Shown: positions 9,001 to 40,449, numbered from the stretch's first letter. The stretch: 60,796 nucleotides of DNA from a virus (IMGVR_UViG_3300037963_000751:1-60796), one strand, 5' to 3'. Notes: generated from the sequence alone by a model not told the origin. Made by a program: numbers and translations.

Positions 9001-9629
9001 GAAGCACACCATACTTACAGCAAAATAAAATAGCTCAAGCTTCAGCTAACATGATGCAAGCTATAAGTAGAGGTAAGATGCCACGTAAACAAGATATGCG
9101 TTCATTGATTCTTAACCTTGGTTTTGCTAACGTAGCATTCATCTATATGTCCAACATATTTAAGTATGCCTTTGGAGATGATGAAGATAAAGAAGAAGTA
9201 ATGAGACACATGAAAAAAGTAATGCTTGGCTTTAATTCCTTGACAGCTATACCTTATATTGGACCTACCATAAAAGCAATGGATAATTATTATACAACAG
9301 GCAAGGTGTGGTCTCAAGACTTAGGAGTCAATCCTTTTATGCAAGTGTGGAATAGATTCAGAAAAGCTTATGAAGGTAAGCTTGAATTTAAAAATCTTCC
9401 TAAAGATGTTATTAGTTTAATAGGAATAAACACCGACCCATTTGTAGCATTGTATAATAAGACAATAGGAGAGGGTGACTTCTTTGAAAAGGATGAAGAC
9501 TTCTATGACCTACGAGGTATAAGCAAATCATATAGACCTTCAGAGTCTAAGTATGAAGAAGGCTTTGAACCATTTGAAAAAACAGAAAGCTTTAAAACAT
9601 TTAAAGAGCTTGAGGAGGAAAACAAATAG
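78..9629 (+). CDS. Giant virion/ejection polyvalent protein, 3' part (true start at 59521; ~3601 aa in total); two zincin HExxH motifs and an LPD23-like domain
   Basis: HEIFH at 2601-2615 and HEVQH at 4782-4796; WYRGIDGEYRYEIPD and YERTYGEIEARNVEER motifs resemble LPD23/MPTase; last gene of the structural arm. Confidence 0.75.
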   Translation: MTPEQKDSEQGVLLRESLISQKKNVAKAKQKLELDKKNIASRKEDIYYLAGKYAEYLDDPNRGNLSGSLWNAFAQSWSSMTAGTVDLALWGAEKVFGKDELAPEQTDIYHSSQIRETLDPYWKKKYGYTWTDQLNKNADKGNYDYTAEQKEEADQIMQEFSPFSYSLVQKANLDKDGRAIIREVRKGSKLWEGPTSDKWTETFKEEQPWYLGGGGWLHGVVETLPAMPMMATGYKQGGSLFMKGARTLFSYKSMPMIAMSYDRNMQEMEKNPAFKNVSLDEKRGISTLLAVPEAALEKITWGSGLLNAKPQIGAWIAKKALAKKGSTLGTKAYQKAVVDVIENNLARGIVRTLSTGAAEFETGLAQEITSMSIKNFYDDAKGKKMFDNPQFFGGDMLEFTKQALKGGFYEMLGGIVMGVPAGVSTSMNKKDFSKMDDATWGIFKQIKDNPQLLKLTDQKFIQEISLGQMTPRQALMIKENYKEATNLYNEIPDAEKYTGDQQREIMGLLLRKHELQRRIDKKDKALSSKDKAEIETINQKLVNISERAGDINYTLEKIDDVYKNVKDDAEVELAAETLEEIPDIYKDRAVEKDTGDMGEVEIGSTITGLSIGKQKTPYTGTYYTYKLTGKELNNAIQEQSTDFVDANQSAPNVQEMEGGTSETGPEVTTPKEGEQVSEEQQVQKEKLNNLGFTDEVIEMMTPEDIEVAQTYTEPSQATEMVERYQKDMEAAQSLAAEDTTTEDKPLTAEDVETVGVAGQVTQQNRGNLDVNPVQKKIIRQAEKAVQSLKKIMPNLRIITYATEAEYAAAVPKSKIGERGEISNDGNTIRINLAAADETTVSHEIFHAIITSKFNINSKKIATAVNNDLIKKLLKVLPKDKYRMNVVDKITKERKQISLHEYLEEYVKEYKDTETHSEEKLAQIFGFLGANYSTLTYQEQSVIKKFINKIKSLVGRQVKDAGFTKDDARVIDLLNSLAYKVKVGEEVQEGDLQLFDEVAEEVQGQPTETTTEEVVEETPAEEVVEEVVDEAPAETTIEEILEEVERNEKGVFTVLNDRATTRKRIIKRQSRDETWSETVYDIFLYPQGTKEDISKHPVVKGRRKKTYNDYNKYKKALQTQLNKKTTTEEAPAEEMVTDEEFTEFTNTGKVADEVIEKITEKIKRGEQLTQREEAIRQDKSNEVEAKLKETTEEAPAEEVVEEIDKKAEEVLNETKKFIESSKKRKLGVITIIKNGSFYDYDLRDDIENQLKKLTELAREVDEKYYADITRAEIELKKVYVKMHQDYLKRLQSPAGTIDDAITRGIINPIEKITRQKQLTANKSDNVFFAKQEIRDVKEEIESLNNLIKEVSEEAPTSRKQVAAKESVAPMKVNEEFSKMTPEQKRKQLGGRYGILSLELKKGLFFAEQQYKKRDEYDRLSKSNKLKDMDLFAKKFQGNPPMTEAQIFLNSGGWYRGIDGEYRYEIPDGKLAKGSYKDFTRASKDAATREARLDEVYIAPEVYKTYPFLKDIMVQFTAMTIEKDEETIPNRTTVGSWNPATKIIKFNTNYSEFAKATPEEQRNEIFYTIVHEVQHAIQDFEGFAMGGTDVETKGGLGKRVTEEFGKGRERLTKERIFASEAQKGLKKKYERFRINNEFIDYLSAALNKLKKLGEKDLYNKLLKSKNKGKDLVDIVLQYEATDATMNRIYREIKEDARYYNRELGYPEVKMTQKNLKEFFDNTDYNRHILDEYGINNAQTGSQIDAIQKSLLKRLRMYDAYKMYERTYGEIEARNVEERAKIKKELARYKSELDKLNRLGKKEVANEIFTKELYDYLSENVIDIEDVIGEGVTYEDFKIFLKNKSYSKEIYEYLTMKDPNYSRDVTLGEFQRNVEGLTTEEKIREIEEQLYKQLPTVTEDSKGLIEDIDKSEQGPYIMKSYPKAKRKQVASKQKVEMTTQEENAKAKEKLEGMNRKQLPSPNASMEDVIAWGRSRGESDAVLRMFLKSRGYGTIKEIREAMAQTVQMAAMPPDLANIEGGLEVAEKMYEDIMTKFYDATMETREVVAESKKRIAKAKRVMQNNPKEYGKEKDGVFTKPNGDKVTLDITKAKRGVKIITATQVLGAPRTSMESVFTKSKAQRRAILQQIIESNEDYQNQDEINKANIQRLLDRALNTRANPSVEQRMRDVKRIAKAAEQNEKKLQEVRNRLRALIRESIPRHLEDSTTTKNLNAMIKSLAKVNSTNVLVETDRILKQIERINKKEINSLRKKALKIIKQKSSTAKQGKTTGVDAETNMFMQEIKKIWLKMDELLKEENSGELIDEYLNKIQEELEDGKKVADIDTIIKKTIDGEPLNSQEKRKLYKNFAYDMMYTYPSLDYEGMQLLYEEIADLKAEGIAKFKSNREARVKRNAKLEAEAVEQLKLKYPFLVNENGEFMDNEEVQLKKAKLLNQWKKTRSFKAIKDWSRIVLNKKKQKSSEWLRAWLATNETLNNALDMQGVGKSFFTKNVYQRLRDMRDVFLKGQQSEQKKMNEILNGIPAIAEKVSRRKSPYAVLVDMLAEGDMVDIQGNIFTPDEALRIYALSKNEVQREKLQIGQDKKGRGTFITDAGLQELEAQLPTALKQYADAMVDYLSNDYYNSVNDVYMDVNSASLPYVENYFPTKTYNTTAERSSIEEKLQKGDVNFNAVFNAQTAPALNARTNVTGRIPLKGYTFTGELSNHFEQMERFKAYAEGVKVIRDIVSMDSVNSVLDVTGLKQVYLRNLMTTINPNAFQARGPESIFGKALNNFSSFVLGFKLWQIPKQATSFINAFEEYDSGLIKKDVDGLGLTKGAADMVMFMIDMAATTGSLAFELMPKALRERLGIPDGPISQAYKISPTFRNRIQAAMEGDLWGLESGSKIKYNNEAKSEGIIPRKLKMLPQKARKYGSYPTMLGDVLGVMGYMINYRRDIKNGMSKEEALRKFNRYEATQQTRSETEKNRLQLESNDMLRAFTMFGSTPYLQQNKIAQASANMMQAISRGKMPRKQDMRSLILNLGFANVAFIYMSNIFKYAFGDDEDKEEVMRHMKKVMLGFNSLTAIPYIGPTIKAMDNYYTTGKVWSQDLGVNPFMQVWNRFRKAYEGKLEFKNLPKDVISLIGINTDPFVALYNKTIGEGDFFEKDEDFYDLRGISKSYRPSESKYEEGFEPFEKTESFKTFKELEEENK
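1978..2139 (+). CDS. Nested +1-frame small basic protein, 53 aa (MPFKSKAQISWMRINQPQMYKRWRAEHPRQDLKSLPQKKGSKLAKSNRSKRKS)
   Basis: ATG at 1978 after an AT-rich leader, TAA at 2137-2139; resembles small phage proteins beginning MPFKSxAQ (recalled, not searched). Confidence 0.6.
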   Translation: MPFKSKAQISWMRINQPQMYKRWRAEHPRQDLKSLPQKKGSKLAKSNRSKRKS

Positions 9630-16164: not shown

Positions 16165-16182
16165 TAGCTCGTTGACGAGCTA
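16165..16182. repeat. Dyad motif copy TAGCTCG-TTGA-CGAGCTA (contains the exonuclease stop)
   Basis: Read directly. Confidence 0.9.
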
Positions 16183-16917
16183 TAGTACCTCGTTAATTAT
16201 AAAAGATTCTATATCTTCTGTTGGATGTTCCCCAAAGAATTTATTATATACCTCGATAGCTTTATCTACCTTTAACATTCCATTGTGTACGAACTCTTCT
16301 GATGGTTCATATACACCAAGCATCTTTGTGTTCTTGTCAATCACATAGAATACTAATGGTCTGCCAAACAACTCTTGGTATATGTAACACTGACTATCGT
16401 AGTTGTACTTACGTGCCGACCACTTGAAGTCGTTGATGTTTGATGTAGTCTTGAGGTCAATGATACAATCCTCGCATAATATATCCGCCTTACCTTTCCA
16501 TTGCATACCTTTAATCGTACCAATAGCAGGCTTCTCATATTCATTTGTCTCCTCTGTCATCTTGTCAAACATAAATATATTTCCCCTGATTGTTTGAACC
16601 AATTCTAATATATTACTACACTCTTTACTTAGTAGTGCTACCTCTACATTGTGTTCAGCTATGAACTCCTTGTATGCTTTTGAATTACGTGATGACACGT
16701 CAACACACAAGGTGTCCTCTGCTTTCTCAGGCTCAAGTAATAACTGATGAAAGTATCTACCCTCAGCAAAGTTTTTGTTGTCGGGTCTGCTTATCCTAAA
16801 CTCTTTAGGGTTAGATAGCAGTGTACCTATGTCTGAGTTGCTGAGGTATTGCTTACCAAAGTCTCCATAGTAATTGCTATCGTCTTCTAACTTCTTTAGT
16901 ATGTCCTGTGTTTTCAT
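16180..16917 (-). CDS. RecE/ExoVIII-like PD-(D/E)XK exonuclease (DUF3799-like)
   Basis: LSNSDI, GRYFHQLLLEP, KGKAD...IIDLKTT, YDSQCYIY. Confidence 0.85.
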   Translation of the reverse strand: MKTQDILKKLEDDSNYYGDFGKQYLSNSDIGTLLSNPKEFRISRPDNKNFAEGRYFHQLLLEPEKAEDTLCVDVSSRNSKAYKEFIAEHNVEVALLSKECSNILELVQTIRGNIFMFDKMTEETNEYEKPAIGTIKGMQWKGKADILCEDCIIDLKTTSNINDFKWSARKYNYDSQCYIYQELFGRPLVFYVIDKNTKMLGVYEPSEEFVHNGMLKVDKAIEVYNKFFGEHPTEDIESFIINEVL

Positions 16918-17446: not shown

Positions 17447-17841
17447 TTGATTAGATATTTATTTATTTGTTTTGTTATTCTTCTATAGTCTTTCAGTATA
17501 GTTGTCCTTGCTTTCTTCAGTGATTTAATTCTCTTGTCATTCTTCCTTGTGTTAACCTCACTCCTCATCCTCTCTTCTATTACATTTAATTTTCTCTTGT
17601 AGTTGACAAGTGCTAATCTATATACACCTATTACCCATCCATACTCTAAGAAAGTTTGATACTGTTCTGTTGTTATCTCTTTATAGAACACACCAATAGT
17701 TGTGTTGAATATCTGTACGTCATTCCCTTCCCTTGTTATCTTGATTCCTTGTCGGAGACGTGCTTCATATTCTGCACCATCAATGTTGATACTAACCTCA
17801 TCAGTATTTGCCTGATTAAATATGTCATTTAACTTGTACAT
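17443..17841 (-). CDS. Hypothetical protein
   Basis: ORF packing. Confidence 0.7.
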   Translation of the reverse strand: MYKLNDIFNQANTDEVSINIDGAEYEARLRQGIKITREGNDVQIFNTTIGVFYKEITTEQYQTFLEYGWVIGVYRLALVNYKRKLNVIEERMRSEVNTRKNDKRIKSLKKARTTILKDYRRITKQINKYLIK

Positions 17842-18131
17842 TCTTTTCTTATACTCTTTACTATATCTTGTATATCATCATTGGTTTCAGTCAATAGTTT
17901 TATTTTGTTGTAACCATGATAGATAGATGAGTGACTAATCTTATAGTTGTTATCCATCATATACTTTTTTAATTGAGCAAGAGTCATGGGTGCTTCAAGA
18001 GATAGGTAGTATAGCAGGTGTCTTGCATCTGCTAAATCACTACGCTTATCCTTGGCAAACAACTCGCTCTCATCTATGTAGTATGCTTTGCATATCTTAT
18101 CTACATACTTGTTGAAGATTCTTTTTTTCAT
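17829..18131 (-). CDS. Stand-alone DnaA C-terminal (domain IV) HTH-like protein
   Basis: KDKRSDLADARHLLYYL...SHSSIYHGYNKI; start moved to MKKRIF because of the AAATCAAATG leader. Confidence 0.75.
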   Translation of the reverse strand: MKKRIFNKYVDKICKAYYIDESELFAKDKRSDLADARHLLYYLSLEAPMTLAQLKKYMMDNNYKISHSSIYHGYNKIKLLTETNDDIQDIVKSIRKECTS

Positions 18132-18261
18132 TTGATTTAATTTTCTGTTTAACTTCATGGCTCGCTGACGAGCCATCTCTTTCGTATATGTCCTTGTCAT
18201 ATACACCATTGTTTATATCCTCTTGTAACTGTTGGATATAAATATCTTTAGTCCTTCCCAT
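18097..18261 (-). CDS. Small hypothetical protein, 54 aa (MGRTKDIYIQQLQED...), not in the ORF track
   Basis: ATG overlaps the upstream TAA (TAATG coupling). Confidence 0.5.
   Translation of the reverse strand: MGRTKDIYIQQLQEDINNGVYDKDIYERDGSSASHEVKQKIKSNEKKNLQQVCR
18157..18176. repeat. Dyad motif copy ATGGCTCG-CTGA-CGAGCCAT
   Basis: Read directly. Confidence 0.9.
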
Positions 18262-18632
18262 TAGCTTAATGTTTTAAATTTACTAACGTGCTTATCCCAA
18301 TAGAACTCCTCTACATGTTTGATGTCATCTGATTGCACACTATCACTACCTACCTGCACATAAAAGATATTATTCTTTAGTGCTTGGATATACAATCCTC
18401 CTACATATACCACTACATCTGTGCAGTCATCACGTAGTGAATCTTTAAATGCATACGCATGGTGTATGTCCGACATAAATCTTTCTCTTGGTATAAACCT
18501 GCCGAAACTTTGGAAGTCCTCGAGTGTCATCTCGTCTGTCTTATCTACGTAGTTCTGTAACCTTCGTATAAATTTTCTATTGGGTTTTGATTTGAGCTTC
18601 TGAAATAGAATCTCCTTGAATATAATGTTCAT
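18261..18632 (-). CDS. Hypothetical protein
   Basis: First ORF after an early promoter. Confidence 0.7.
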   Translation of the reverse strand: MNIIFKEILFQKLKSKPNRKFIRRLQNYVDKTDEMTLEDFQSFGRFIPRERFMSDIHHAYAFKDSLRDDCTDVVVYVGGLYIQALKNNIFYVQVGSDSVQSDDIKHVEEFYWDKHVSKFKTLS

Positions 18633-18661
18633 CTGTCCTTAATTTATTTATATTAATACTA

Positions 18662-18693
18662 TAAAGATAGTTAAAAGAAACTACAATTCCAAG
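18662..18693 (-). promoter_or_regulatory. Early promoter CTTGGAATTGT-N13-TATCTTTA
   Basis: Bacteroidota-type -33/-7 layout, shared with 23765 and 26699. Confidence 0.7.
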
Positions 18694-18697
18694 TAGT

Positions 18698-18943
18698 TTA
18701 ATCTAAATCTTTTCTTTTACATATGAGTACGTTACCCACTATGCTTTGTCCTGCAAGTTTACTTGCGTGTTCATTGACAGGTAGCCCAAAGATTAATCCT
18801 TCTTCATTGACTATCATAACATCATCATCTGTGAGTCGTACCAATTCAATGTACCCACCCACTGCGTCTTGCATTTGTTTGAGGCTGTTGTCCTTGTCAA
18901 TAGCTACCTCTTCTATTGTTCCGTCTGTTTTAATCCACTGCAT
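18698..18943 (-). CDS. DUF3846-like protein
   Basis: LKQMQDAVGGYIE...IVNEEG...LPVN...IVGNV. Confidence 0.75.
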   Translation of the reverse strand: MQWIKTDGTIEEVAIDKDNSLKQMQDAVGGYIELVRLTDDDVMIVNEEGLIFGLPVNEHASKLAGQSIVGNVLICKRKDLD

Positions 18944-18947
18944 CTTA

Positions 18948-19151
18948 TTAGTTTTGATTGTTATTAATTCTATCGAGACTCATCATAGCTAACAAACGTG
19001 TAGGTAATACATGCTTGTCATTACATTTGTCGCAACATCTATCTCCTTCTTCACCCAAAGGAGCAGGGTTGTGTCCTTTATCCCATCCTGTACGAGGGCA
19101 AGGTTTTATTTCTTGGTTGCACAAACAACACTTTAGTTTTTCTTTCTTCAT
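18948..19151 (-). CDS. Small Zn-finger protein
   Basis: CCLC...GHNPAP...CCDKC. Confidence 0.7.
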   Translation of the reverse strand: MKKEKLKCCLCNQEIKPCPRTGWDKGHNPAPLGEEGDRCCDKCNDKHVLPTRLLAMMSLDRINNNQN

Positions 19152-19522
19152 TCTACTTCATTTAATCCCATGTCAATGGCATATTCATTAATCATTTCAA
19201 AAATTCTCATAGACATCCACTCACTCATAAACACTTTGTCAAGTATCTCCATTGCTTGTTCTTTAGAAGCATCCCAATTCGTTTGTACATCCTCAACACA
19301 CCACATATTACCTGCGTAGTACCCTCGTTCTTCAAGCTCGGTGCGTAAGGCATGAGTTGGTAGGTATATAGGCACAGTATCTCTTTTATCTGACAAACTT
19401 TTTAATTTGTCTGTAACAATATCTAATACCTCTCCGTCTGATAGGTATCCTCTATCTTCACTATCCTCAGCGTGCTTAGGACTCTCAATGAAGTCTATTA
19501 ATTTTTGTATTTCTGTTTTCAT
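19148..19522 (-). CDS. Hypothetical protein
   Basis: ORF with an AT-rich leader. Confidence 0.7.
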   Translation of the reverse strand: MKTEIQKLIDFIESPKHAEDSEDRGYLSDGEVLDIVTDKLKSLSDKRDTVPIYLPTHALRTELEERGYYAGNMWCVEDVQTNWDASKEQAMEILDKVFMSEWMSMRIFEMINEYAIDMGLNEVE

Positions 19523-19607
19523 AATTATCTTAGTTTATAAATTCGTATCTTGTACTTAAATATATTCAATCTGAATATGGTTTTGTATCTGCTCATGGTA
19601 TTTGTTT

Positions 19608-19892
19608 TTATATGTGTCCACCTATCAAGTATGAATCTCCTTCAGGGTCTACTTCGTATCTCACTTCCTGCTCAGATGTTTCATCAGTCCACCCATCATC
19701 TGAATCCATACCATTTCCATGTTCAAACTCTGCTTCGTCAAGTGCTTTCTCTAACTTGTACCCCCATTCAGTTTCTTTCTCAAGGAGATAGTCATGCACA
19801 CTATCGAAGTCATCATGCAATGTACTTGGTACATCTATCTCAATCTCTGCGTACTTGTAGTACACTCTTCTAATTTTAATTACTGTTTTCAT
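19608..19892 (-). CDS. Very acidic hypothetical protein
   Basis: Start placed at MKTVIK after AAACAAATCAAATG; D/E-rich. Confidence 0.7.
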   Translation of the reverse strand: MKTVIKIRRVYYKYAEIEIDVPSTLHDDFDSVHDYLLEKETEWGYKLEKALDEAEFEHGNGMDSDDGWTDETSEQEVRYEVDPEGDSYLIGGHI

Positions 19893-20052
19893 TTGATTTG
19901 TTTTTATTGTATTCATTAATTACTTCTTGTATGGTTTCTTCACTATCATCCATAACACTTACATAACTATCCACCTCCTCATCTATTATTATCTCTACTT
20001 GATATTTAAAATCTCCACTTGGAATCGCGTCATAATTTATATATGCTTTCAT
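19876..20052 (-). CDS. Small acidic protein, 58 aa (MKAYINYDAIPSGDFKYQVEIIIDEE...), not in the ORF track
   Basis: Leader identical to that of 20064..20306; fills the gap between genes. Confidence 0.6.
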   Translation of the reverse strand: MKAYINYDAIPSGDFKYQVEIIIDEEVDSYVSVMDDSEETIQEVINEYNKNKSNENSN

Positions 20053-20327
20053 GCTATTTGTTTTTAGTTAGTTAATAACTCTTCATCCTCTGAATAGTAA
20101 GACTCTATGTTATCCTCTGACACTATCTCCATTCCATCTTGTTCCCATAGGGTAACCCAACATTCCCTAATGGATACGTACTGAGGTTTATCTTTCTTTG
20201 ATTCATTGAAATGTTTCATGGCATCTTCTTGATGCTCATAAAAAGATGGGTAGTCTCTTCCATTACAATCGCTTTCCCATACTGAATATACTTTCTTTGC
20301 TTTCATGCTATTTGTTTTTAGTTAGTT
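20044..20327. repeat. 30-bp direct repeat (20044-20073 and 20298-20327) flanking one small gene
   Basis: TGCTTTCATGCTATTTGTTTTTAGTTAGTT occurs twice. Confidence 0.85.
20064..20306 (-). CDS. Hypothetical acidic protein
   Basis: ORF bounded by direct repeats. Confidence 0.7.
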   Translation of the reverse strand: MKAKKVYSVWESDCNGRDYPSFYEHQEDAMKHFNESKKDKPQYVSIRECWVTLWEQDGMEIVSEDNIESYYSEDEELLTN

Positions 20328-20520
20328 CAAATTCATATATGTTTTCTTTTTCATCTTCACTCATGCACTCATATATATCATCTCTTATATATACTCCCCT
20401 ATCTAAATACTCGACTTCTTCTTTCTTCCATTTTTCTTGTGAGTCAAGTTCAACAAAGTCATACCACTCATCAAACTTGTCAATGTCTTTCACAAAATAT
20501 ATTCTTCCTTTATCTTTCAT
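20308..20520 (-). CDS. Hypothetical acidic protein (70 aa, start MKDKGRI)
   Basis: AAACAAATCAAATG leader; the longer ORF-track start overlaps a terminator and the upstream gene. Confidence 0.65.
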   Translation of the reverse strand: MKDKGRIYFVKDIDKFDEWYDFVELDSQEKWKKEEVEYLDRGVYIRDDIYECMSEDEKENIYEFELTKNK

Positions 20521-20539
20521 TTGATTTGTTTTTAAGATT

Positions 20540-20568
20540 ATAAAATAGGGGAGAGACTTTCCCTCCCC
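20540..20568 (-). terminator. Probable terminator after the GATase-GGCT gene
   Basis: GGGGAG/CTCCCC stem followed by a U-rich tract on the minus strand. Confidence 0.5.
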
Positions 20569-20581
20569 ATCCTTATGTGTG

Positions 20582-20599
20582 TGGCTCGTTGACGAGCCA
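20582..20599. repeat. Dyad motif copy TGGCTCG-TTGA-CGAGCCA abutting a stop codon
   Basis: Read directly. Confidence 0.9.
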
Positions 20600-21808
20600 T
20601 TATGAATAGAGGTTATACTTGTTAACCTCTTCTTCAGTGAACCAACCACCACATGAATTGCAGTAGTACATATTGAACCTATCATGCTCAAGTGTACCCG
20701 AGTAACAATCAATGCAGTGGGGTGTAACAAGCATGTTACTATCTTCACTAATGTCCTTATCTCTATTCTCCCACTCTTCTAAGAACTTGTCTGCGTCCTC
20801 TGTTTGTTTGGGTGTTGAGGTAAAGAAGTTCTCCTCTTGTTTAACGTAGGTCGTGTCCTCCCATGAATCCCATGCAGTATTCTTCTTTGGTGTTGACTTG
20901 TAGCTTGGTGTCCAATTATCCCATGAATCCCATGTGCTCCAACCATAGTTGGATTTTATTTTGGGTTGAACATATGTCTTGTGTAACTGTCTGTTACCTA
21001 CCTTCTCTTGTATGTTGAAGTATACCCAAGCCATTACAATACTACCATCCTCCATCTTCACAGGTATCTTCTCACGTCTGTACCAAGTAGGGTGCGACTC
21101 CAATCCATCAATGTCCTTGAACACTGAGTCACTTACCTTGAACACATCAATCTCTACGTTGTGTCCTCGACCTTTCTCATTGATGAGGTATGGTAATCCA
21201 CTGATGATAAGAGGATACTTGTCTTGTGTCTTACCTGCACCCACATACCTTGACTTATCTAAGTACCAATTGTAATTGTTGTACCCTTTCTTCAGTGTAC
21301 CATACACACCTATCACATTGTCCTGCAACACGTTGGTCTTGGAATACCACACACCATCTTTGAAAGTATACAAGTGTCTGTTGTATATCTGAAAGGTCTT
21401 AGTCTTGGTATTGATACTGACAAACCTACTACTATACTTGGCGAGGTACTTCTTCCATTTCTTACGTGGTATGTCCCCAAGTTTCTCAGCTAACACTCTG
21501 CTATCACACTTGATGAAGTTCCCCATACCTTTGATAGTTCCGTTCATCATTAGCAGTTCATCTTTCTGCTTACCACATACGAACGGATGAGTATTTTCTA
21601 TGTTCACTGCACCCACTGTCGCATATCTGAAGTGAGCAATGTATGGTCGAGTGGTGTCAAGTATCTCCCACTCATTAGACTTGTGATAGGATACATCAAA
21701 GGTATCCAACCATACCACACCCATACCATCAGGGTTTATCATTGCCGAGTTCTCTAAGGTGTCTCGACTAACCTTGTTTTGTTTTTGTTTAATAATAATT
21801 ACACACAT
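20600..21808 (-). CDS. Class II glutamine amidotransferase fused to a gamma-glutamylcyclotransferase (AIG2-like) domain and a C-terminal Zn ribbon
   Basis: N-terminal MC, NPDGMG, HFRYATVG, THPF, NG, DS; VYGTLKKG and LE GGCT motifs; CIDC...CNSC. Confidence 0.85.
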   Translation of the reverse strand: MCVIIIKQKQNKVSRDTLENSAMINPDGMGVVWLDTFDVSYHKSNEWEILDTTRPYIAHFRYATVGAVNIENTHPFVCGKQKDELLMMNGTIKGMGNFIKCDSRVLAEKLGDIPRKKWKKYLAKYSSRFVSINTKTKTFQIYNRHLYTFKDGVWYSKTNVLQDNVIGVYGTLKKGYNNYNWYLDKSRYVGAGKTQDKYPLIISGLPYLINEKGRGHNVEIDVFKVSDSVFKDIDGLESHPTWYRREKIPVKMEDGSIVMAWVYFNIQEKVGNRQLHKTYVQPKIKSNYGWSTWDSWDNWTPSYKSTPKKNTAWDSWEDTTYVKQEENFFTSTPKQTEDADKFLEEWENRDKDISEDSNMLVTPHCIDCYSGTLEHDRFNMYYCNSCGGWFTEEEVNKYNLYS

Positions 21809-21868
21809 AATTGTAAATTTAATTTAATTTGTGGCACGAATAACGTGGTCGTACCTTCCACTTATCTT

Positions 21869-21886
21869 TGGCTCGTTGACGAGCTA
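21869..21886. repeat. Dyad motif copy TGGCTCG-TTGA-CGAGCTA (contains the amidoligase stop)
   Basis: Read directly. Confidence 0.9.
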
Positions 21887-22921
21887 CTTCCAATTGTCTA
21901 TCTTCCAACCATATTCTCTGTTGTCTTGACGCTTGTTGTAGTAGTACAACTCTTTCTCTATTGCACACTGTGTCCACCTACCTGTATTGTGAAAGTCCCC
22001 ATCAAGAAAGGGTAATGCGTTGGCATCTATCCTGCCCTCGTTTAAGAATAAGTCAAAGCTTTTCGCATAATCCAATGCCTCATCTACTTTGCGAGTGTCA
22101 TTGTTATACATCATCATTAAGATGGGACGTATCTTAGCATAGAATACTTTGTGCTGTCGTCTTGGATAGTTCACTGCGGTATCCATTAACTCATAGAACA
22201 ACTCGTACCTCCTCATCATCTGTCGAACGGACGTGAATCTGCTGACAAGTCTAAACTCAACTGTCCCATTTGCTTTGGCTAACACCATGTTGTACCTGCC
22301 GTTCTGTCCATTGTAGGTATAGTTATACTTCCTCATGTTCTTGATTAACCTACTCTCTTCGCTCGTTCTCATGTTGAGGTTACCATTGCAATAGGAGTTT
22401 CCGAGTCTTAGTCTATACAAGTACATCATTATGCCACTATACTTACGTAACTTCTTGAGTAGTTCGCTTGACGTCATGCCGTCACACGCCACTGTGATAT
22501 GTCCACCACAATCTGAATTGCTTGGACTCCATCTGTCATCTATTACTCTCTCTGCTTGGTACATAAGGTTGTAGATTTTCGTTCTCCAACTACAGCGTGG
22601 GAGCAATGGTAGTATGTGAGTAACTGCCTCAGTACCACAACTACTATCTCTCTCAAAGCCACAGAATAATCTGTACTCATAGATAGAACTACGTGATATG
22701 TCCTCCTTCTCCACCTCCATACCGATAGTAAACTTGGTTTCATAATCTCCACCCAAATCAATGAGCGAGTCACGTTGCTCTCGTTTTCTTAGACCTGCAA
22801 TATCTACTTTGTACTTGGTCTTGTTTAGTTTGAGGGGTGGTAGCTTACAATGATAGTCTACTCGTTGCCCTCTTGTTCGTTCGCCCGTTAGTTCGTAGGC
22901 GATTCCATTTTGTTCACACAT
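21884..22921 (-). CDS. Putative amidoligase (COOH-NH2 ligase, Amidoligase_2-like)
   Basis: IGMEVE, ERDSS, EAVT, CGGHITV, RY and TVEFR motifs; adjacent to GATase/GGCT. Confidence 0.8.
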   Translation of the reverse strand: MCEQNGIAYELTGERTRGQRVDYHCKLPPLKLNKTKYKVDIAGLRKREQRDSLIDLGGDYETKFTIGMEVEKEDISRSSIYEYRLFCGFERDSSCGTEAVTHILPLLPRCSWRTKIYNLMYQAERVIDDRWSPSNSDCGGHITVACDGMTSSELLKKLRKYSGIMMYLYRLRLGNSYCNGNLNMRTSEESRLIKNMRKYNYTYNGQNGRYNMVLAKANGTVEFRLVSRFTSVRQMMRRYELFYELMDTAVNYPRRQHKVFYAKIRPILMMMYNNDTRKVDEALDYAKSFDLFLNEGRIDANALPFLDGDFHNTGRWTQCAIEKELYYYNKRQDNREYGWKIDNWK

Positions 22922-22949: not shown

Positions 22950-22969
22950 ATGGCTCGTTGCCGAGCCAT
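22950..22969. repeat. Dyad motif copy ATGGCTCG-TTGC-CGAGCCAT
   Basis: Read directly. Confidence 0.9.
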
Positions 22970-23534: not shown

Positions 23535-23554
23535 ATGGCTCGTTGGCGAGCCAT
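23535..23554. repeat. Dyad motif copy ATGGCTCG-TTGG-CGAGCCAT
   Basis: Read directly; abuts the stop of the 31-aa ORF. Confidence 0.9.
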
Positions 23555-23707: not shown

Positions 23708-23725
23708 TGGCTCGTTGACGAGCTA
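23708..23725. repeat. Dyad motif copy TGGCTCG-TTGA-CGAGCTA
   Basis: Read directly; ~40 bp downstream of the promoter -7 box. Confidence 0.9.
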
Positions 23726-23847: not shown

Positions 23848-23867
23848 ATGGCTCGTTGACGAGCTAT
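23848..23867. repeat. Dyad motif copy ATGGCTCG-TTGA-CGAGCTAT (contains a TAG stop)
   Basis: Read directly. Confidence 0.9.
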
Positions 23868-25086: not shown

Positions 25087-25314
25087 TTATTTATTTGGTT
25101 TAACATTATGGCTCGCTAACGAGCTGTTTTCTATTTCGTTTAACATCTCAAGGTGATTGTCTAATACATCTAACATTCGTTCGAGATTCTCTACTCTTGT
25201 ATTGGCGTTATTCATTTTAATAAATCCTCGTGCACCCCCAATACATAATATTAGTGCACAAATTGGTATAACAATTAGTCCCATTTTGTTTTCTTTTTTA
25301 AATTTAACTTTCAC
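25087..25314 (-). CDS. Small membrane-anchored protein
   Basis: N-terminal TM segment. Confidence 0.65.
   Translation of the reverse strand: MKVKFKKENKMGLIVIPICALILCIGGARGFIKMNNANTRVENLERMLDVLDNHLEMLNEIENSSLASHNVKPNK
25109..25126. repeat. Dyad motif copy TGGCTCG-CTAA-CGAGCTG (inside a CDS)
   Basis: Read directly. Confidence 0.85.
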
Positions 25315-25695: not shown

Positions 25696-25746
25696 AATGG
25701 CTCGCTGGCGAGCCATTGATTAAACATTTAGCTCGTTAACGAGCCA
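25696..25746. repeat. Two dyad copies: AATGGCTCG-CTGG-CGAGCCATT (25696-25717) and TAGCTCG-TTAA-CGAGCCA (25729-25746)
   Basis: Read directly. Confidence 0.9.
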
Positions 25747-26618: not shown

Positions 26619-26635
26619 AACATTAAATTTTAGTT

Positions 26636-26653
26636 TGGCTCGTTGGCGAGCCG
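26636..26653. repeat. Dyad motif copy TGGCTCG-TTGG-CGAGCCG
   Basis: Read directly; lies between the promoter and the start codon. Confidence 0.9.
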
Positions 26654-27148: not shown

Positions 27149-27170
27149 TATATAATTAAAATAATATACC

Positions 27171-27362: not shown

Positions 27363-27386
27363 CAACAAATGTCCTTAATGTTGTTT

Positions 27387-27415
27387 AGGGGATACCTTTA
27401 TGGTGTCCCTTTTTT
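27387..27415 (+). terminator. Intrinsic terminator
   Basis: GGGATACC/GGTGTCCC stem plus T run. Confidence 0.7.
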
Positions 27416-27420
27416 ATTTC

Positions 27421-27610
27421 CCTGTGTCGATAATAATATAGTTAGTGTCGATTCTATGTCGATTTCAAAATAGTTAAGTAGTTGATTTATAGTTAGTTAT
27501 TTTTTTTTATGTCGATATGTCGATTTTAAAGTCTCGTATATAAGAAAGAGTTACGCAGTAGTAATAATATATATATATATATATAGAAAATTTTTTGACA
27601 CATGACATAA
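27421..27610. other. Origin-like module 2: five TGTCGA iterons, (TA)n tract and inverted TGACA sites
   Basis: Same layout as 15625..15790. Confidence 0.55.
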
Positions 27611-27621
27611 GAGATATTTAT

Positions 27622-27629
27622 TATCTTTG
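27622..27629 (+). promoter_or_regulatory. -7 promoter box TATCTTTG for groEL
   Basis: TAnnTTTG consensus. Confidence 0.7.
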
Positions 27630-27651: not shown

Positions 27652-29265
27652 ATGCAACAACATGGATACAATCCGAAGGAGTTAAACTTCGGAGAGGAAG
27701 GACGAAAGAAGTTAGAAAGCGGAATCACGAAACTCGCTAATGCTGTAAAGAGTACTCTCGGTCCTCGAGGGAACACAGTATTAATTGAATCACCACATCA
27801 CACATCAGGTATCACAGTTACTAAAGATGGTGTCACTGTAGCTAAGTCAATAGACTTGGTAGACCCGGTGGAGAATCTCGCAGTCAAGATAATGAAAGAG
27901 GCTGCGGATAGGACTGCGACTCTTGCAGGAGATGGAACGACTACAGCGATAGTATTAGCTGAAGCTATTATTAATATTGGTAATAAATATATTACTGACA
28001 AACATAATCGTACGGAGGTACTAAGAGAGTTAGTCTCGGCAAAAGATTATGTGGTTGAGATGTTAGCTAAAGATTCTTTGAGTATAACTGACAAGACATT
28101 GAAAGATGTGGCTATAGTATCAGCGAACAATGATACTGAGGTGGGAGAGTTGATAACTGAAACTTATCTTGAGGTAGGCAAGGATGGTCTTGTTACAGTA
28201 GAGAAGGCACAGGGTGCTGAGACTTATTATGAAACCACTAAAGGTTTACAAGTTGATAGAGGTTACATGTCAAACATGTTTGTGAACAATCACAAGAATG
28301 ATGAGTGTATATTAGAAGATGTACATATATTAGTATCTGACTCAGAGATAAGTAGTATCATGCAGATTGATGGTGTATTGAAACCATTGGTAGCTGACCG
28401 ACATAATATAAAGTTATTAATCATTGCACCTTGCTCCAAGGAAATGGAGAATACTCTAACGGCTAATGTAGTAAAGAATGGTTTAAAGATATGTTCTATA
28501 CCACCTCCCAACTTTGGATACAAACAACATGAGTTGATGAGCGACATTGCTGTGTCAGTAGGAGCGACATACTTCAGTGAGAAGACAGGAGATGATTTAA
28601 GTCTTATCGAGTTCAGCGACTTGGGTAAAGCTAAGAAGGTTATAGTGGGTAGGTCAAAGACAGTTATCATTAATAATGATGATGAGGATTTGGTATACAA
28701 GAGAGACCTGAGAGTTGAGGAGCTATGGGTTCAACATAATAATACAAAGAAGAAAGCAGATAGGGATTTTATAAAATCTCGAATTGCCACCCTTACGGGT
28801 GGCGTGGGTGTCATACATGTAGGAGGAGACACTGACATAGAGCAGAAAGAATTATATGATAGAGTTGATGATGCAGTATGTGCTGTTCGAGCTGCACTAA
28901 GTGAAGGGATACTTCCGGGAGGAGGAGTTGCTTTGATGAGATATGCTGATATGTATAATCGCATGGACCACCAAAACAAAAACATAAAGGCAGCTATACA
29001 GATAATGTCTGAAGCGTTAATGGCTCCTGTCATACAGATACTTACTAACGCAGGGAAAAACTTTGAGGATATATATACAGAGATACCAAAGAAGAACCAT
29101 GGCTATGATGTGAAGAATGAAAAGAAAGGGGACTTGATAAAGATGGGAGTAATAGACCCATCCAAAGTAACAAGGTCTGCTCTTATCAATGCTATGTCTG
29201 TAGCGACAACAATACTAAGTACAAATGCAATCGTAACAATGGCGAGAAGTTATGAAACCAATTAA
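27652..29265 (+). CDS. groEL: Chaperonin GroEL (phage-encoded)
   Basis: TLGPRG, VTKDGVTVAK, AGDGTTTA, GGGVAL, GVIDP. Confidence 0.97.
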   Translation: MQQHGYNPKELNFGEEGRKKLESGITKLANAVKSTLGPRGNTVLIESPHHTSGITVTKDGVTVAKSIDLVDPVENLAVKIMKEAADRTATLAGDGTTTAIVLAEAIINIGNKYITDKHNRTEVLRELVSAKDYVVEMLAKDSLSITDKTLKDVAIVSANNDTEVGELITETYLEVGKDGLVTVEKAQGAETYYETTKGLQVDRGYMSNMFVNNHKNDECILEDVHILVSDSEISSIMQIDGVLKPLVADRHNIKLLIIAPCSKEMENTLTANVVKNGLKICSIPPPNFGYKQHELMSDIAVSVGATYFSEKTGDDLSLIEFSDLGKAKKVIVGRSKTVIINNDDEDLVYKRDLRVEELWVQHNNTKKKADRDFIKSRIATLTGGVGVIHVGGDTDIEQKELYDRVDDAVCAVRAALSEGILPGGGVALMRYADMYNRMDHQNKNIKAAIQIMSEALMAPVIQILTNAGKNFEDIYTEIPKKNHGYDVKNEKKGDLIKMGVIDPSKVTRSALINAMSVATTILSTNAIVTMARSYETN

Positions 29266-29509
29266 TAAATATATTATAATAAAACCTATTGATGAGGAAA
29301 TAAAAACCTCATCAGGTCTTTTACTATCTGCACATGATGTAGATAAGTTTAGATATAAGAAAGCAAAAGTAATAAAGCCGGGTACAACAGTTGAGGATAT
29401 AAAGGAGGGAGATGAGATTTACTTTGATAAACGTACAGGCTACTCTATGATGCTTAACAATGAGAAGGTAACTATCATTGTTGAGAGGGACGTTGTTGTT
29501 GTCTTGTAA
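29252..29509 (+). CDS. groES: Co-chaperonin GroES
   Basis: MKPINKYIIIKP...TSSGLLL...IKEGDEIYF...ERDVVVV. Confidence 0.9.
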   Translation: MKPINKYIIIKPIDEEIKTSSGLLLSAHDVDKFRYKKAKVIKPGTTVEDIKEGDEIYFDKRTGYSMMLNNEKVTIIVERDVVVVL

Positions 29510-29915
29510 TCTTATTCATTTTCTTAATCATGTTTCGGTACACCTTGTCGGTGTACTTTACATTCTTGTTGAACATAGGATTAATGTAAGGTTCTTCAGA
29601 TAGTTCCTTACCACTAAGTTGATTATACATATTAGTCATCATACGTTGTGACTTAAAGGATACTTTGTATATTGTTTTGTGAGTGTGATTCTTTTTTTTG
29701 GAGAAGACTTCAATCCATCCGTCACGTAGTAGCTCTTCAAACCTTCTCTCTCTCCAAGGGAGTAGTTCATCAAACTCTTTAAACTTTTGTTTAGTAAAGT
29801 ATTTCTCTGAACGTAAGAAGAGTAGCATCTCAAGTTCCGCAGTCTTAAGCTTATACTTTTGTAAAGTATAGTATCTGATTACCCTCCAATACTTGAGATA
29901 GTCATCTTGAGCCAT
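29475..29915 (-). CDS. Probable winged-helix DNA-binding protein (only antisense gene in the late arm)
   Basis: LEMLLFL...FEELLRDGWIEV...YKVS wHTH-like pattern; own TATATTTG box at 29946-29953. Confidence 0.55.
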   Translation of the reverse strand: MAQDDYLKYWRVIRYYTLQKYKLKTAELEMLLFLRSEKYFTKQKFKEFDELLPWRERRFEELLRDGWIEVFSKKKNHTHKTIYKVSFKSQRMMTNMYNQLSGKELSEEPYINPMFNKNVKYTDKVYRNMIKKMNKITRQQQRPSQQ

Positions 29916-37956: not shown

Positions 37957-38237
37957 TGGAATCAAGTGAACTTAAATTAAAAATAATAGCAGCAGGTAAA
38001 AAAGCTGTAAAGGAGTTAATAAAAGTTGCTCAAGAGGAAATAATAAAGCCTGACCCTGAAGATGAACTTGCTGCAGATAGATTAAAGAACGCTGCAGCTA
38101 CTAAAAAGTTAGCTATCATAGATGCGTTTGACATATTAAAACGTATAGATGAAGAGAAAGAAAGATTAGATTACGAGAGTAAAGGAACAACACGAACAGA
38201 TACAAAACAAGGATTTGCAGAAAGAAGGTCTAAATAA
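37956..38237 (+). CDS. Terminase small subunit (probable)
   Basis: Helical 93-aa ORF directly upstream of TerL. Confidence 0.6.
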   Translation: MESSELKLKIIAAGKKAVKELIKVAQEEIIKPDPEDELAADRLKNAAATKKLAIIDAFDILKRIDEEKERLDYESKGTTRTDTKQGFAERRSK

Positions 38238-40449
38238 TTTATACACTGTAGTTAAAGACTATATTCCATCTTCTCATATTAAGAAACATAATAAGAGAAA
38301 GTCATGGGCTTATGGATATAACAAAGACTTTGATGTTGTAGTTATATCTCGCACCGGACAAATAGGTGAGGTGGTTTGTATTAGTGGATTGCACATTGCT
38401 TTACCTTTAGCACCTCAACAGCTCGTTGACGAGCCATTTAATTATTGGCATAGAAAAGATTATCCTAAAGAGTTAGATAGAATAAATAGTATTTTTCAAT
38501 GGAATGAAATGCCACGAGAGTTTAAAGACAAATGGGTAGACTACATTGAAGAAGAGTTTGACCGCAGAGAAGAAGGGCATTGGTTTATAAACAAGAATAA
38601 ACCTACTTATATTACAGGTGCACACTATATGTATCTTCAATGGACTAAGATTGATGTAGGGTATCCGGATTACCGAGAAGCTAATAGAATATTCTTTATA
38701 TATTGGGAGGCGTGCAAGGCTGACAAGAGATGCTTTGGAATGATATATTTAAAGATAAGACGTTCAGGTTTTTCATTCATGGGTTCAGCAGAAGCAGTTA
38801 ATACCGCAACCATAGCGAGAGACTCAAGGGTAGGCATACTATCTAAGACAGGTTCAGATGCAAAGAAGATGTTTACTGATAAGGTCGTACCTATATCTCA
38901 ACACTTACCATTCTTTTTTAAACCCATTCAAGATGGTATGGACAGACCAAAGACTGAGCTTGCTTATAGAATACCTGCATCTAAAATAACCAAAAAGAAT
39001 ATGCATGAAGTAGGTGATGATGAGATGGAGGGATTGGATACTACAATAGATTGGAAGAACACAGATGATAACTCTTATGATGGTGAGAAGTTGTTACTAC
39101 TTGTGCATGATGAGAGTGGTAAATGGCTAAAGCCAAATGATATATTAAATAATTGGAGGGTAACCAAAACTTGTTTAAGGTTAGGTAGTAAGATAATTGG
39201 TAAGTGCATGATGGGTTCTACATCAAATGCATTAAGCAAGGGAGGAAGTAACTTTAAAAAGTTATACGAAAGTTCTAATGTAATGAAAAGAAACTCCAAT
39301 GGTATGACAAAGAGTGGCATGTATTCTTTGTTTATTCCTATGGAGTGGAACATGGAAGGATTTATAGACAGGTATGGATATCCTGTATTCAGAACACCAA
39401 GCAAAGAGGTTAGAGGAGTGGATGATGAAATGATTGACTTTGGAGCTATAGACTATTGGGAGAATGAAGTTACATCTTTAAAGGGAGACCCTGATGCATT
39501 GAATGAATTTTACAGACAATTTCCAAGAACAGAGTCTCATGCATTTAGAGATGAAAGCAACTCTTCATTGTTTAACTTAACTAAGATATATCAACAGATA
39601 GATTATAATGATTCTTTAATAACACAACATCATTTAACACGAGGTTCTTTTCATTGGCAGAACGGAGAGAAAGATACTAAGGTTGTGTTTAGTCCTGATA
39701 TACGAGGAAGATTCCTTGTTAGTTGGACACCTGAGAAAGCTTTACAAAATAGAGTTGTAGTAAAAAATGGAATTAAATATCCGGGCAATGAACACTTAGG
39801 TGCATTTGGTTGTGACTCTTATGACATCTCCGGTGTAGTAGGTGGAGGTGGTTCTAATGGTGCGTTACATGGTGTAACTAAATTCAATATGGATAATGCT
39901 CCAAGCAATGAGTTTTTTTTACAGTATATTGCACGACCCCAAACTGCAGAGATATTTTTTGAAGAAGTATTAATGGCTTGTGTTTTTTATGGTATGCCAA
40001 TACTTGCAGAGAATAATAAACCAAGATTATTATATCATTTTAAGAATAGAGGATATAGAGGATTCTCTATGAATAGACCTGATAAAGTATATAATAAACT
40101 ATCTAAGACAGAAAGGGAGTTAGGTGGTATACCTAATAGCTCTGAAGATGTGAAACAATCTCACGCTTCAGCAGTAGAGTCATACATTGAAAAGCATGTA
40201 GGGATAGATATGGAAGGAACTTATAGAGATAAGGATGACATGGGGTCTATGTTATTCACAAGAACATTAGAAGATTGGGCAAAGTTTGACATTAATAATA
40301 GAACTCGATATGATGCAACAATAAGCTCCGGCTTAGCTATAATGGCTATACAGAAGCACTTATATCAGCCTCAGAAAAAAGAGTCAAAAATAAGCGTTAA
40401 CTTTGCAAGGTATAATAACAAGGGAAGAATCAGTGAATTAATAAAATAA
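38215..40449 (+). CDS. terL: Terminase large subunit
   Basis: KIRRSGFS Walker A variant, LLVHDESGK Walker B, GCDSYD nuclease motif. Confidence 0.9.
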   Translation: MQKEGLNNLYTVVKDYIPSSHIKKHNKRKSWAYGYNKDFDVVVISRTGQIGEVVCISGLHIALPLAPQQLVDEPFNYWHRKDYPKELDRINSIFQWNEMPREFKDKWVDYIEEEFDRREEGHWFINKNKPTYITGAHYMYLQWTKIDVGYPDYREANRIFFIYWEACKADKRCFGMIYLKIRRSGFSFMGSAEAVNTATIARDSRVGILSKTGSDAKKMFTDKVVPISQHLPFFFKPIQDGMDRPKTELAYRIPASKITKKNMHEVGDDEMEGLDTTIDWKNTDDNSYDGEKLLLLVHDESGKWLKPNDILNNWRVTKTCLRLGSKIIGKCMMGSTSNALSKGGSNFKKLYESSNVMKRNSNGMTKSGMYSLFIPMEWNMEGFIDRYGYPVFRTPSKEVRGVDDEMIDFGAIDYWENEVTSLKGDPDALNEFYRQFPRTESHAFRDESNSSLFNLTKIYQQIDYNDSLITQHHLTRGSFHWQNGEKDTKVVFSPDIRGRFLVSWTPEKALQNRVVVKNGIKYPGNEHLGAFGCDSYDISGVVGGGGSNGALHGVTKFNMDNAPSNEFFLQYIARPQTAEIFFEEVLMACVFYGMPILAENNKPRLLYHFKNRGYRGFSMNRPDKVYNKLSKTERELGGIPNSSEDVKQSHASAVESYIEKHVGIDMEGTYRDKDDMGSMLFTRTLEDWAKFDINNRTRYDATISSGLAIMAIQKHLYQPQKKESKISVNFARYNNKGRISELIK
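38419..38436. repeat. Dyad motif copy CAGCTCG-TTGA-CGAGCCA inside terL
   Basis: Read directly; same orientation as the early-arm copies. Confidence 0.85.

Follow-up and report, generated by a model that had tools for sequence, protein, structure and literature searches.

Control of many operons by a single protein that an element itself encodes, acting at many identical sites, is a known principle. KorB and KorA of IncP plasmids and SopB of N15 have identical palindromes scattered over the element, at which an element-encoded dimer co-ordinates many operons; KorB and SopB belong to the ParB family, and their sites lie at or near promoters or act as centromeres and are not systematically placed between cistrons. 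The hairpin promoters of the N4 virion RNA polymerase are few and directional, with a stem of 5-7 bp and a loop of 3 nt, and need a T7-like polymerase domain. Between related mycobacteriophages, site consensus and repressor reportedly co-diverge, a finding attributed to Mavrich and Hatfull. The stoperators of Cluster A mycobacteriophages number more than 20 per genome; they are short and near-identical, lie in short intergenic spaces and are bound by one phage protein that halts transcription (PMC9283540). Those of L5 gp71 and of the TipsytheTRex repressor are asymmetric 13-mers with one working orientation, bound by a monomer with two DNA-binding domains. The PeSL cassettes of T4-type phages are described as composites of an early promoter and a terminator-like stem-loop (PMC2839356, PMC4122927). 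Here we describe 14 copies of a palindrome with the core GCTCG-N4-CGAGC in the IMG/VR virus record IMGVR_UViG_3300037963_000751 (the window, 60,796 nt analysed as a whole), together with a 226-aa phage protein, p226, as the candidate that binds them.

Like the stoperators, the sites of the window phage are many (14), near-identical and set in short intergenic spaces, and the rest of its clade is alike. Like the sites of KorB/KorA and N15 SopB, they are identical short palindromes scattered over the genome of the element, and here a dimer is predicted to bind them. From comparative sequence analysis we read them, at a probability of roughly 0.55, as double-stranded DNA (dsDNA) operator or roadblock sites through which a p226 dimer would control early transcription. 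In the literature searched, including the text of PMC8776804 reached by term, no palindromes, hairpins or promoters are reported for these phages, and p226 is undescribed.

Palindromes in the window and across the clade

GCTCG-N4-CGAGC occurs exactly 14 times in the window and in none of 100 dinucleotide-preserving shuffles (mean 0.00). The arms reach R-GCTCG-N4-CGAGC-Y and mostly extend to ATG...CAT, which gives the site form ATG-GCTCG-TYRA-CGAGC-CAT, a palindrome of 16-20 bp. Arms are paired at a spacing of 4 only (14/14, with none at the other spacings from 0 to 12), and lone half-sites are at background level (11 and 16, against 18 expected from composition). Thirteen of the 14 cores stand in the minus-strand early arm and one in terL. 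An earlier note on this DNA, made from the sequence alone, had given the starts of all 14 cores, eleven of them within 18.1-26.7 kb, and centres of TTGA (seven), TTGG (two), CTGA, TTGC, CTAA, CTGG and TTAA (one each), all of which we recover. The copies are listed by the limits of the palindrome, without strand, the copy 9628..9643 having its core at 9629; L011 is the nearest relative, a complete 59,105-bp genome whose early proteins are mostly 70-97% identical to those of the window.

9628..9643: A GCTCG TTGA CGAGC T, between the convergent ends of a giant plus-strand open reading frame (ORF) and the last minus-strand early-arm gene; gives one base to each of two TAG stops; without counterpart at the orthologous place in L011
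16166..16181: overlaps the stop of the PDDEXK gene; next minus-strand ATGs 19 or 69 nt downstream; missing at the orthologous place in L011
18159..18174: in full ATGGCTCG-CTGA-CGAGCCAT; an ATG of the DnaA-C-like gene follows after 28 nt; L011 site 9252
20583..20598: 2 nt past the stop of the gene for a protein with a gamma-glutamyl cyclotransferase-like (GGACT) domain, and followed by a separate hairpin-plus-T-run terminator (20568-20548, minus strand); orthologue is L011 site 6972
21870..21885: overlaps the stop of a 345-aa gene, 62 nt before the ATG of the GGACT gene; L011 site 5685
22952..22967: 8 nt past a stop, with the ATG at 22921 following after 31 nt; L011 site 4603, where the flanks are kept and the core is replaced
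23537..23552: in the gap 23469-23864, 68 nt before the ATG at 23469; L011 site 4025
23709..23724: in the gap 23469-23864, about 42 nt downstream of a TAnnTTTG motif (23772); abuts an Rfam DUF805b match
23850..23865: overlaps the stop of the 162-aa gene (23864-24352, minus strand)
25110..25125: 30 nt before the ATG at 25080; L011 site 2571
25699..25714: 18 nt before the ATG at 25681, in a tandem pair with the 25730 copy; L011 site 2194
25730..25745: centre TTAA; a TAnnTTTG motif (25808) precedes it by about 57 nt; L011 site 2161
26637..26652: first palindrome in the early arm; the p226 ATG follows after 19 nt; L011 site 1270
38420..38435: within terL, in frame, encoding ..QQLVDEPF..

L011 thus has palindromes at nine orthologous places, with recognisably conserved flanks, and its cores read GACGCC-TTGA-GGCGTC where the window reads GGCTCG-TCAA-CGAGCC. 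Window sites 38421, 16167 and 9629 have no counterpart in the L011 genome. The terL stretch that holds a palindrome (38395-38445, plus strand; ..APQQLVDEPFNY..) is represented in the nearest relative by an unrelated stretch of similar length, between flanks about 80% identical. Among the differences listed for contigs of four read sets, the one that touches a site is A>G at 25730 (one contig of set X7), which perfects the outer pair of that copy. The DUF805b RNA motif is an Rfam match at 23674-23708 on the minus strand (39 bits against a gathering threshold of 35.6, E 1.5e-7). It falls between palindromes 23710 and 23538, in the 390-nt gap and downstream of a TAnnTTTG motif, and could represent a leader or a small structured RNA.

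Related loci of 10-21 kb each were collected from IMG/VR through the conserved GGACT-domain early protein; there are 80 of them, all with that 402-aa protein (80/80), and 82 records when the window and the phage MW202828 are included. The search for the motif in relatives that the earlier note had proposed finds the same architecture with different arms: one GC-containing dyad is present at 4-14 copies in 76/80 loci and at 2-3 copies in the other 4. The clade element is a 16-bp palindrome, G-N5-TYRA-N5'-C, whose arms are the same throughout a genome and change from one genome to another. Among 15 distinct dominant arms, GTGTCT (GTGTCT-TYRA-AGACAC) is the commonest, in 54/82 records, and the others are GTGTCC, GTCTCT, GTCCGT, GAGGGT, GAGAGT, GTCTGT, GGGGGT, GGGTAT, GTGTAC, ATCCGT, GTCTCG, GTGTCG, GACGCC and, in the window, GGCTCG. 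MW202828 has no GCTCG dyad and carries 15 copies of GTGTCG-TTAA-CGACAC, every one in the early arm and most with an ATG 17-23 nt further on. In each of five further complete relatives there are 13-17 sites, the majority within the early arm and about 3-5 elsewhere (read from positions), and the outgroups elemoB and phi38:1 show no comparable dyad. In a scan of IMG/VR for TGGCTCG-N4-CGAGCCA, of whose 103 matching stretches 80 were listed, no listed contig had more than one match; we judged this, without a computed expectation, to be chance level. In several relatives (L032, L059, L036, L034 and others) short repeats such as cctgcc and ccgtcc make up a strikingly GC-rich region about 70 nt upstream of the first palindrome, between the divergent arms of otherwise AT-rich genomes; it could be an origin or packaging region.

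The elements keep a consistent place relative to genes. In the window a minus-strand ATG follows six cores at 18, 19, 19, 28, 30 and 31 nt and five more at 49-69 nt. Across the loci, the element ends 15-25 nt before the next ATG in 110/500 perfect sites (2% of random positions), with a second peak at 60-100 nt (120 sites), and in 158/502 sites the stop of the preceding gene is between -10 and 15 nt from the element (5% of random positions). Together these distances place the elements in intercistronic gaps of 45-55 nt, nearer the stop than the start. The fusion to stop codons described in the earlier note is real, but is part of this general placement: an arm gives a base of the TAG stop to five ORFs (the plus-strand end at 9629 and the minus-strand low ends at 9642, 16180, 21884 and 23864), and copies 20584 and 22953 abut stops, 2 and 8 nt away. 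Its count of three copies inside coding sequence stands for 38421 (plus strand, terL), and for 18160 and 25111 only if the longest ORF start is taken, alternative ATGs lying 28 and 30 nt downstream.

TAnnTTTG motifs, which we take to be the Bacteroidetes -7 type promoter consensus, occur on the minus strand of the window at 26820, 25808 and 23772, in three long gaps and each upstream of palindromes. There are also hairpin-plus-T-run terminators, of sequence unrelated to the palindromes:

20548-20568, minus strand: terminator
27387-27411, plus strand: terminator
about 23480-23530, minus strand: terminator

Two of the three are directly downstream of palindromes, and the third (CCCCATG...CATGGGG) is kept in L011, where TTTT then follows. 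The palindromes themselves have no U-tract: in 462 unique sites the T fraction at +16 to +25 is 0.14-0.48 with no T run, the flank logo has no promoter-like or U-rich motif and a faint symmetric extension only, and the 45 nt upstream and 70 nt downstream contain no conserved promoter element. The earlier argument that the sites are not RNA terminators is supported by the flanks and by the ordinary terminators of other sequence in the same arm.

The geometry of the sites further suggests a ligand on the duplex. The 662 sites across the loci comprise 513 perfect, 93 one-mismatch and 56 two-mismatch copies, the last class being about what chance would give by our own estimate and set aside. The element is a degenerate palindrome with a central pyrimidine-purine step, the centre being T-Y-R-A in 566/662 sites (on the sense strand TCAA 344, TTGA 138, TTAA 62 and TCGA 22). 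Spacing is rigid (574 sites canonical, 1 at -1, 0 at +1), with half-site centres 10 bp apart and a loop of 4 nt in every case (6 nt when the innermost pair is taken as part of it). Arm positions 2-5 are near-invariant within a genome (17 single mismatches there, against 472 perfect sites), and single mismatches concentrate at the innermost arm position (51/80). The innermost positions are unlinked, with 121 Watson-Crick pairs against 123.3 expected if independent (175 sites in 21 varying loci), and sense-strand mismatches show no strand bias (G·T 63, A·C 52). Rigid spacing, invariant arms, the lack of pairing or strand bias and bare flanks fit two half-sites of 5-6 bp, one turn apart, bound by a symmetric dimer on B-DNA; judged from these sequence features, a terminator or a structure-only RNA element fits poorly.

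The centre has a bias of its own. The sense-strand central dinucleotide in the window is CA in 11 sites, TA in 3 and TG in none, and the co-orientation recorded in the earlier note is confirmed, with 13/14 centres reading YTRN on the plus strand and one being the palindromic TTAA. Its interpretation, that the sites are oriented to the chromosome rather than to transcription, is not supported: it depends on one site (38421), 12/13 asymmetric centres do no more than follow the strand of the early genes, site 9629 lies between convergent genes, the sense-strand majority in the nearest relative is the opposite one (TTGA 7, TCAA 2) and the 662 clade sites are mixed. Because the nearest relative is reversed, we infer that the bias comes from copying of a master copy or from mild selection on the mRNA, and not from a strand-specific mechanism.

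p226, a candidate binding protein

25938-26618, minus strand: p226, 226 aa, candidate palindrome-binding protein of an uncharacterised family

Between the window and L011, p226 is 43% identical, the DnaA-C-like protein 59% and the neighbouring proteins 70-97%. p226 is present in 70/82 records, and in most of the remaining 12 the locus reaches only a short way upstream of the GGACT gene. The outgroups elemoB and phi38:1 give no match to a p226 hidden Markov model, and both are also without palindromes.

The sequence of p226 changes with the arms. In its tree every variant-arm lineage sits on a long terminal branch (0.74-2.06, against a median of 0.23); one GTGTCT row (L069) is also long (0.94). 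The long-branched lineages include a phage with GGGTAT arms (L017), nested among short-branched GTGTCT phages with 98/97 support. At matched GGACT-protein identity, p226 is less alike in different-arm pairs, a fall with no equal in PDDEXK, p84 or primase. Among pairs whose overall identity is 25-50%, identity over residues 89-105 is 0.76-0.79 when the arms agree and 0.43-0.47 when they do not; all eight of the 13-residue windows that discriminate best begin at residues 88-95, and windows sampled elsewhere differ by at most 0.12. In an AlphaFold2 (AF2) model (predicted local distance difference test, pLDDT, 91.8; mostly helical) this segment comprises the end of helix 85-92, a turn and helix 97-112. 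The pattern QKS[FY]F-YK..K is kept in p226 of 42 GTGTCT phages, and positions 96, 101 and 105 differ in 13, 11 and 11 of the 14 other arm types. Each arm type has a distinct version of the helix, similar arms (GAGGGT, GAGAGT) having similar versions, and Arg98 accompanies G-rich arms. On this co-variation, p226 behaves as a specificity determinant of the palindrome arms would.

The earlier note had pointed to the products of 25938 and 17829 as possible partners of the sites, and only the first co-varies with them. We rejected the DnaA-C-like protein (17829-18209) as the binder since its conserved residues are the same across all arm types: 35 columns conserved in 45 GTGTCT phages are also kept in nearly all the others. 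To judge from this conservation, it presumably binds some other conserved site. A second candidate, the 146-aa ORF at 29478-29915, has a homologue in MW202828 annotated as 'repressor protein' and was set aside, with no supporting Pfam match.

Two copies of p226 are modelled as a symmetric homodimer with a score of 0.77, the best of three controls scoring 0.00; the 0.77 mark is reached by 20/30 proteins solved as same-chain pairs and by 1/23 solved as single chains. Runs agree in at least 97% of contacts, and the partner pLDDT is at least 83. The predicted interface comprises residues 4-81 and 161-212 and leaves helix 96-112 outside. The model supports, and does not prove, binding between copies. 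Together with the helix that co-varies with the arms, it lends support to the earlier suggestion of dsDNA sites for a dimeric protein.

p226 resembles little in the libraries compared. It has no Pfam match, no PHROG family, no PDB profile match below E 0.39 and no Foldseek match in PDB at E <=0.001; BFVD yields only four unnamed viral proteins and ESM Atlas only a DUF3102 cluster at rank 29. Its 64 sequence relatives are all hypothetical proteins on marine contigs of about 60 kb.

Proposed action and rival explanations

We consider it probable that p226 physically binds the sites. If it does, the ligand is very likely to be double-stranded DNA rather than RNA, and a repressive roadblock is an even proposition. 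p226 is the first or second gene of the early arm and stands, in relatives, behind a consensus host-type promoter; in GTGTCT-type phages it begins about 40 nt behind a TTTG-19-TAnnTTTG promoter, and so is probably made first, by the host polymerase. The homodimer would dock on the palindrome with one helix-turn-helix-like recognition helix per half-site and the flexible central pyrimidine-purine step between them. By occupying the gaps between downstream early cistrons it would gate host RNA polymerase through the early arm, most likely through stoperator-like roadblocks that bring early transcription to a close. Such an action would be compatible with the earlier note's idea of a joint shut-off of all early units. 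The first site, both in the window and in L011, is in p226's own leader, which would allow autoregulation. Sites and p226 specificity would switch together, even between close relatives. Activation ranks below repression because 15-25 nt to the ATG is too short, and too unconserved, for a host-type promoter.

Several observations weigh against this proposal. The tight distance to the next ATG would equally suit a role at the RNA level, and as RNA the sites can also fold, into hairpins of -6.8 to -15.6 kcal/mol. A symmetric dimer leaves unexplained both the co-oriented centre within a genome (11 CA, 3 TA and 0 TG in the window) and the 2.5:1 sense-strand excess of TCAA across the clade. In GTGTCT phages the first palindrome is about 180-210 nt upstream of the p226 promoter and outside its transcript, which would not be expected from a pure roadblock model; a few sites fall within the late arm or coding sequence, and in one locus with p226 (L039) no more than 2-3 sites can be recognised. 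The pairs behind the pairwise statistics are not independent, only about five arm switches nested among close relatives are clearly independent, and the co-variation comparison covered the proteins encoded in the 10-21 kb loci. The term helix-turn-helix comes solely from AF2 secondary structure and the sequence pattern, because p226 has no Pfam, PHROG or PDB match.

A larger claim, which we hold tentatively and think rather doubtful, is that p226 is a protein of previously unseen fold that runs the whole early programme and doubles as a means of inter-phage exclusion, a heteroimmunity without lysogeny. A resident p226 would silence the early arm of a co-infecting relative with the same arms, which would explain the fast joint rewriting of sites and protein. 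The phages concerned are a large and apparently lytic clade of podophages of about 60 kb from marine Bacteroidetes.

The palindromes could instead act as hairpins in a polycistronic early mRNA, in processing, stabilisation, translational coupling or antitermination, possibly read by a sequence-specific protein on boxB/N-like or Cas6-like logic. Their intercistronic siting and the narrow 15-25 nt to the next ATG are what such a role would produce, but several sites per genome lie outside the early arm. Nine of the 14 window sites form sense-strand hairpins at -9.2 kcal/mol or lower, whereas the other five fold as the 5-bp core only (-6.8 kcal/mol), because their outer pairs read A·C on that strand. 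The innermost positions of the two arms vary without regard to each other, and the sense strand shows no preference for mismatches of G·U type (63 versus 52). The excess of sense-strand TCAA over TTGA (344 versus 138; in the window 11 CA and 0 TG) speaks for a folded strand, yet the majority loop is reversed in the nearest relative, 62 sites are fully symmetric TTAA, and the centres of five sites in one genome (G003, by eye) are inconsistently oriented relative to local genes. A co-varying p226 with a helix-turn-helix-like segment and a symmetric dimer model would also suit B-DNA better than an A-form stem. We regard action at the RNA level as unlikely.

Similarly unlikely, in our view, is that p226 binds the duplex sites for a task other than transcription: organisation or segregation, replication or packaging, protection of early DNA, or exclusion of relatives. 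ParB/parS, N15 SopB and KorB are precedents for dispersed centromere-like sites. All the binding evidence for operator or roadblock sites serves this explanation as well, and it would accommodate the 3-5 sites per genome outside the early arm in five complete relatives, the window site in terL, and the first site of the common type, which adjoins the GC-rich repeat region upstream of the early promoter; fast turnover of specificity between close relatives is expected under inter-phage conflict. What tells against it is the strong preference for stop/start gaps, a prediction of a transcription-linked role, when centromere or origin sites need not avoid coding sequence, and p226 has no ParB, Srx or other known domain.

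We think it improbable that the palindromes are recombination joints or selfish repeats of PeSL, REP/RAYT or attC type that shuffle small early genes, with copies spread and homogenised through gene conversion or by an enzyme specific to the element. Close relatives differ by gain and loss of copies (three window sites, one of them in terL, have no L011 counterpart), and the co-orientation of centres in a genome with its flip in the nearest relative would fit master-copy copying. The 125-aa gene at 25304-25681, between two conserved palindromes, also has no counterpart in L011 although neighbouring genes are conserved, and by this comparison looks like a gene replacement bounded by repeats. 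However, the flanks carry no promoter motif, so the definition of a PeSL does not apply; no HUH (Y1) transposase or integrase was found among the proteins scanned, which were only part of the ORFs; and homogenisation alone would leave the change of the p226 helix with every arm type unexplained.

Hairpin promoters for an N4-like virion-borne polymerase, or intrinsic terminators for the host polymerase, are highly improbable: a giant virion-type ORF (about 3,600 aa), GC-rich stems before early genes and, for a terminator, the sensible place of site 9629 at a convergent gene end are outweighed by a symmetric element with almost no direction, a loop of 4 nt and never 3, flank logos with no U-tract, ordinary terminators of other sequence beside the palindromes, the presence of host-type promoters, a giant ORF with no PHROG family or DxDxD motif, and a six-frame search for PF00940 (T7/N4-type polymerase) that gave no match, as it also gave none in control genomes.

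Genome context and comparison with known systems

The window is a complete, circularly permuted podophage genome of about 60.7 kb. Bases 2-99 recur as the final 98 bases (60699-60796) and the giant ORF is open across the junction of window end and start (59521-60796 joined to 3-9629, plus strand), at odds with the CheckV and record label of a linear genome 65% complete. Large virion proteins are encoded on the plus strand. The minus strand, from about 27.3 down to 9.6 kb, carries small early genes and then replication genes (the DnaA-C-like helix-turn-helix protein, the PDDEXK nuclease, a primase-helicase and an SNF2 helicase). The genes named in this report are:

16180-16917, minus strand: PDDEXK gene
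17829-18209, minus strand: DnaA domain-IV-like helix-turn-helix protein (Bac_DnaA_C, E 1.5e-6), in 75/82 records
20600-21808, minus strand: 402-aa early protein, class-II glutamine amidotransferase-like N-terminus and GGACT domain
23864-24352, minus strand: 162-aa gene
25304-25681, minus strand: 125-aa gene, phrog_554
27652-29265, plus strand: GroEL (Cpn60), E 9e-59; not terL
38215-40449, plus strand: terL, phrog_6681
40449-42884, plus strand: portal

A GroES-like ORF lies directly 3' of the phage GroEL gene (the two spanning 27652-29509, plus strand), and a host-type promoter, TTTTTG-19-TATCTTTG, is immediately 5' of it (27595-27629). By terL, the relatives are MW202828 (74% identity; 60,850 bp, circular) and, at a greater distance, Flavobacterium elemo phages and phages of Maribacter, Cellulophaga (phi38:1, Pervagoviridae) and Tenacibaculum; megablast of 18000-27500 against the phage collection found no close DNA relative. 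The giant ORF has long Glu/Lys-rich stretches, two HExxH motifs (by eye) and a weak LPD23 match, and its homologues in elemoB and MW202828 are of 3,694-3,859 aa. We considered it as a polymerase and rejected it, as it has no PHROG family, no PDB sequence match and no DxDxD motif. A crAss-like affiliation was also dropped, the phi14:2 phage group being unrelated to the window phage; according to the phi14:2 preprint, the virion-polymerase early transcripts of that phage have no common upstream motif.

If p226 binds as proposed, these phages offer a natural series of at least 15 matched helix/arm pairs from which a recognition code for a new DNA-binding family might be read, and a first handle on early-gene control in abundant, uncultured marine flavobacterial phages. 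The complete rewriting of sites between phages with 85-97% identity in their other proteins also raises the question of how a multi-site regulon switches without a dead intermediate.

Compared with the PeSL cassettes, the palindromes are likewise repeated stem-loop motifs between small variable early genes, and gene content between the repeats turns over; unlike them, they contain no promoter motif, and their arms are sequence-specific and co-vary with a protein. As in N4, a podophage that has a giant virion protein carries a short GC-rich inverted repeat ahead of its early genes, but the loop is 4 nt, the flanks are nearly symmetric with little information and no T7-like polymerase domain was found. 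Intrinsic terminators pair a GC hairpin with a U-tract, and the palindromes have no T run. Unlike KorB and SopB, p226 has no ParB or Srx domain by Pfam, PDB profile or Foldseek, and the window sites lie between cistrons.

The closest parallel, the stoperators, differs in several ways. In place of asymmetric sites and a monomer there is a palindrome of 16-20 bp, a rigid 10-bp spacing of half-sites and a predicted symmetric homodimer. The stoperator repressor combines a helix-turn-helix with a Stoperator domain, whereas p226 has no sequence or fold match to solved repressors. Stoperator orientation is tied to transcription; here only the central dinucleotide is asymmetric, with 11 CA to 0 TG in the window, 344:138 in the clade and 2:7 in the nearest relative. 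Unlike the temperate mycobacteriophages, the window phage has no integrase or lysogeny module among the ORFs scanned, and its host is a marine Bacteroidetes. New with respect to all these systems are a palindromic form of site placed between cistrons, the family of the protein, the group of phages and hosts concerned and the switching of arms wholesale between near-identical genomes. If the proposed role of p226 is correct, the stoperator principle would extend from temperate actinophages to another phage lineage, another host phylum and another site geometry.

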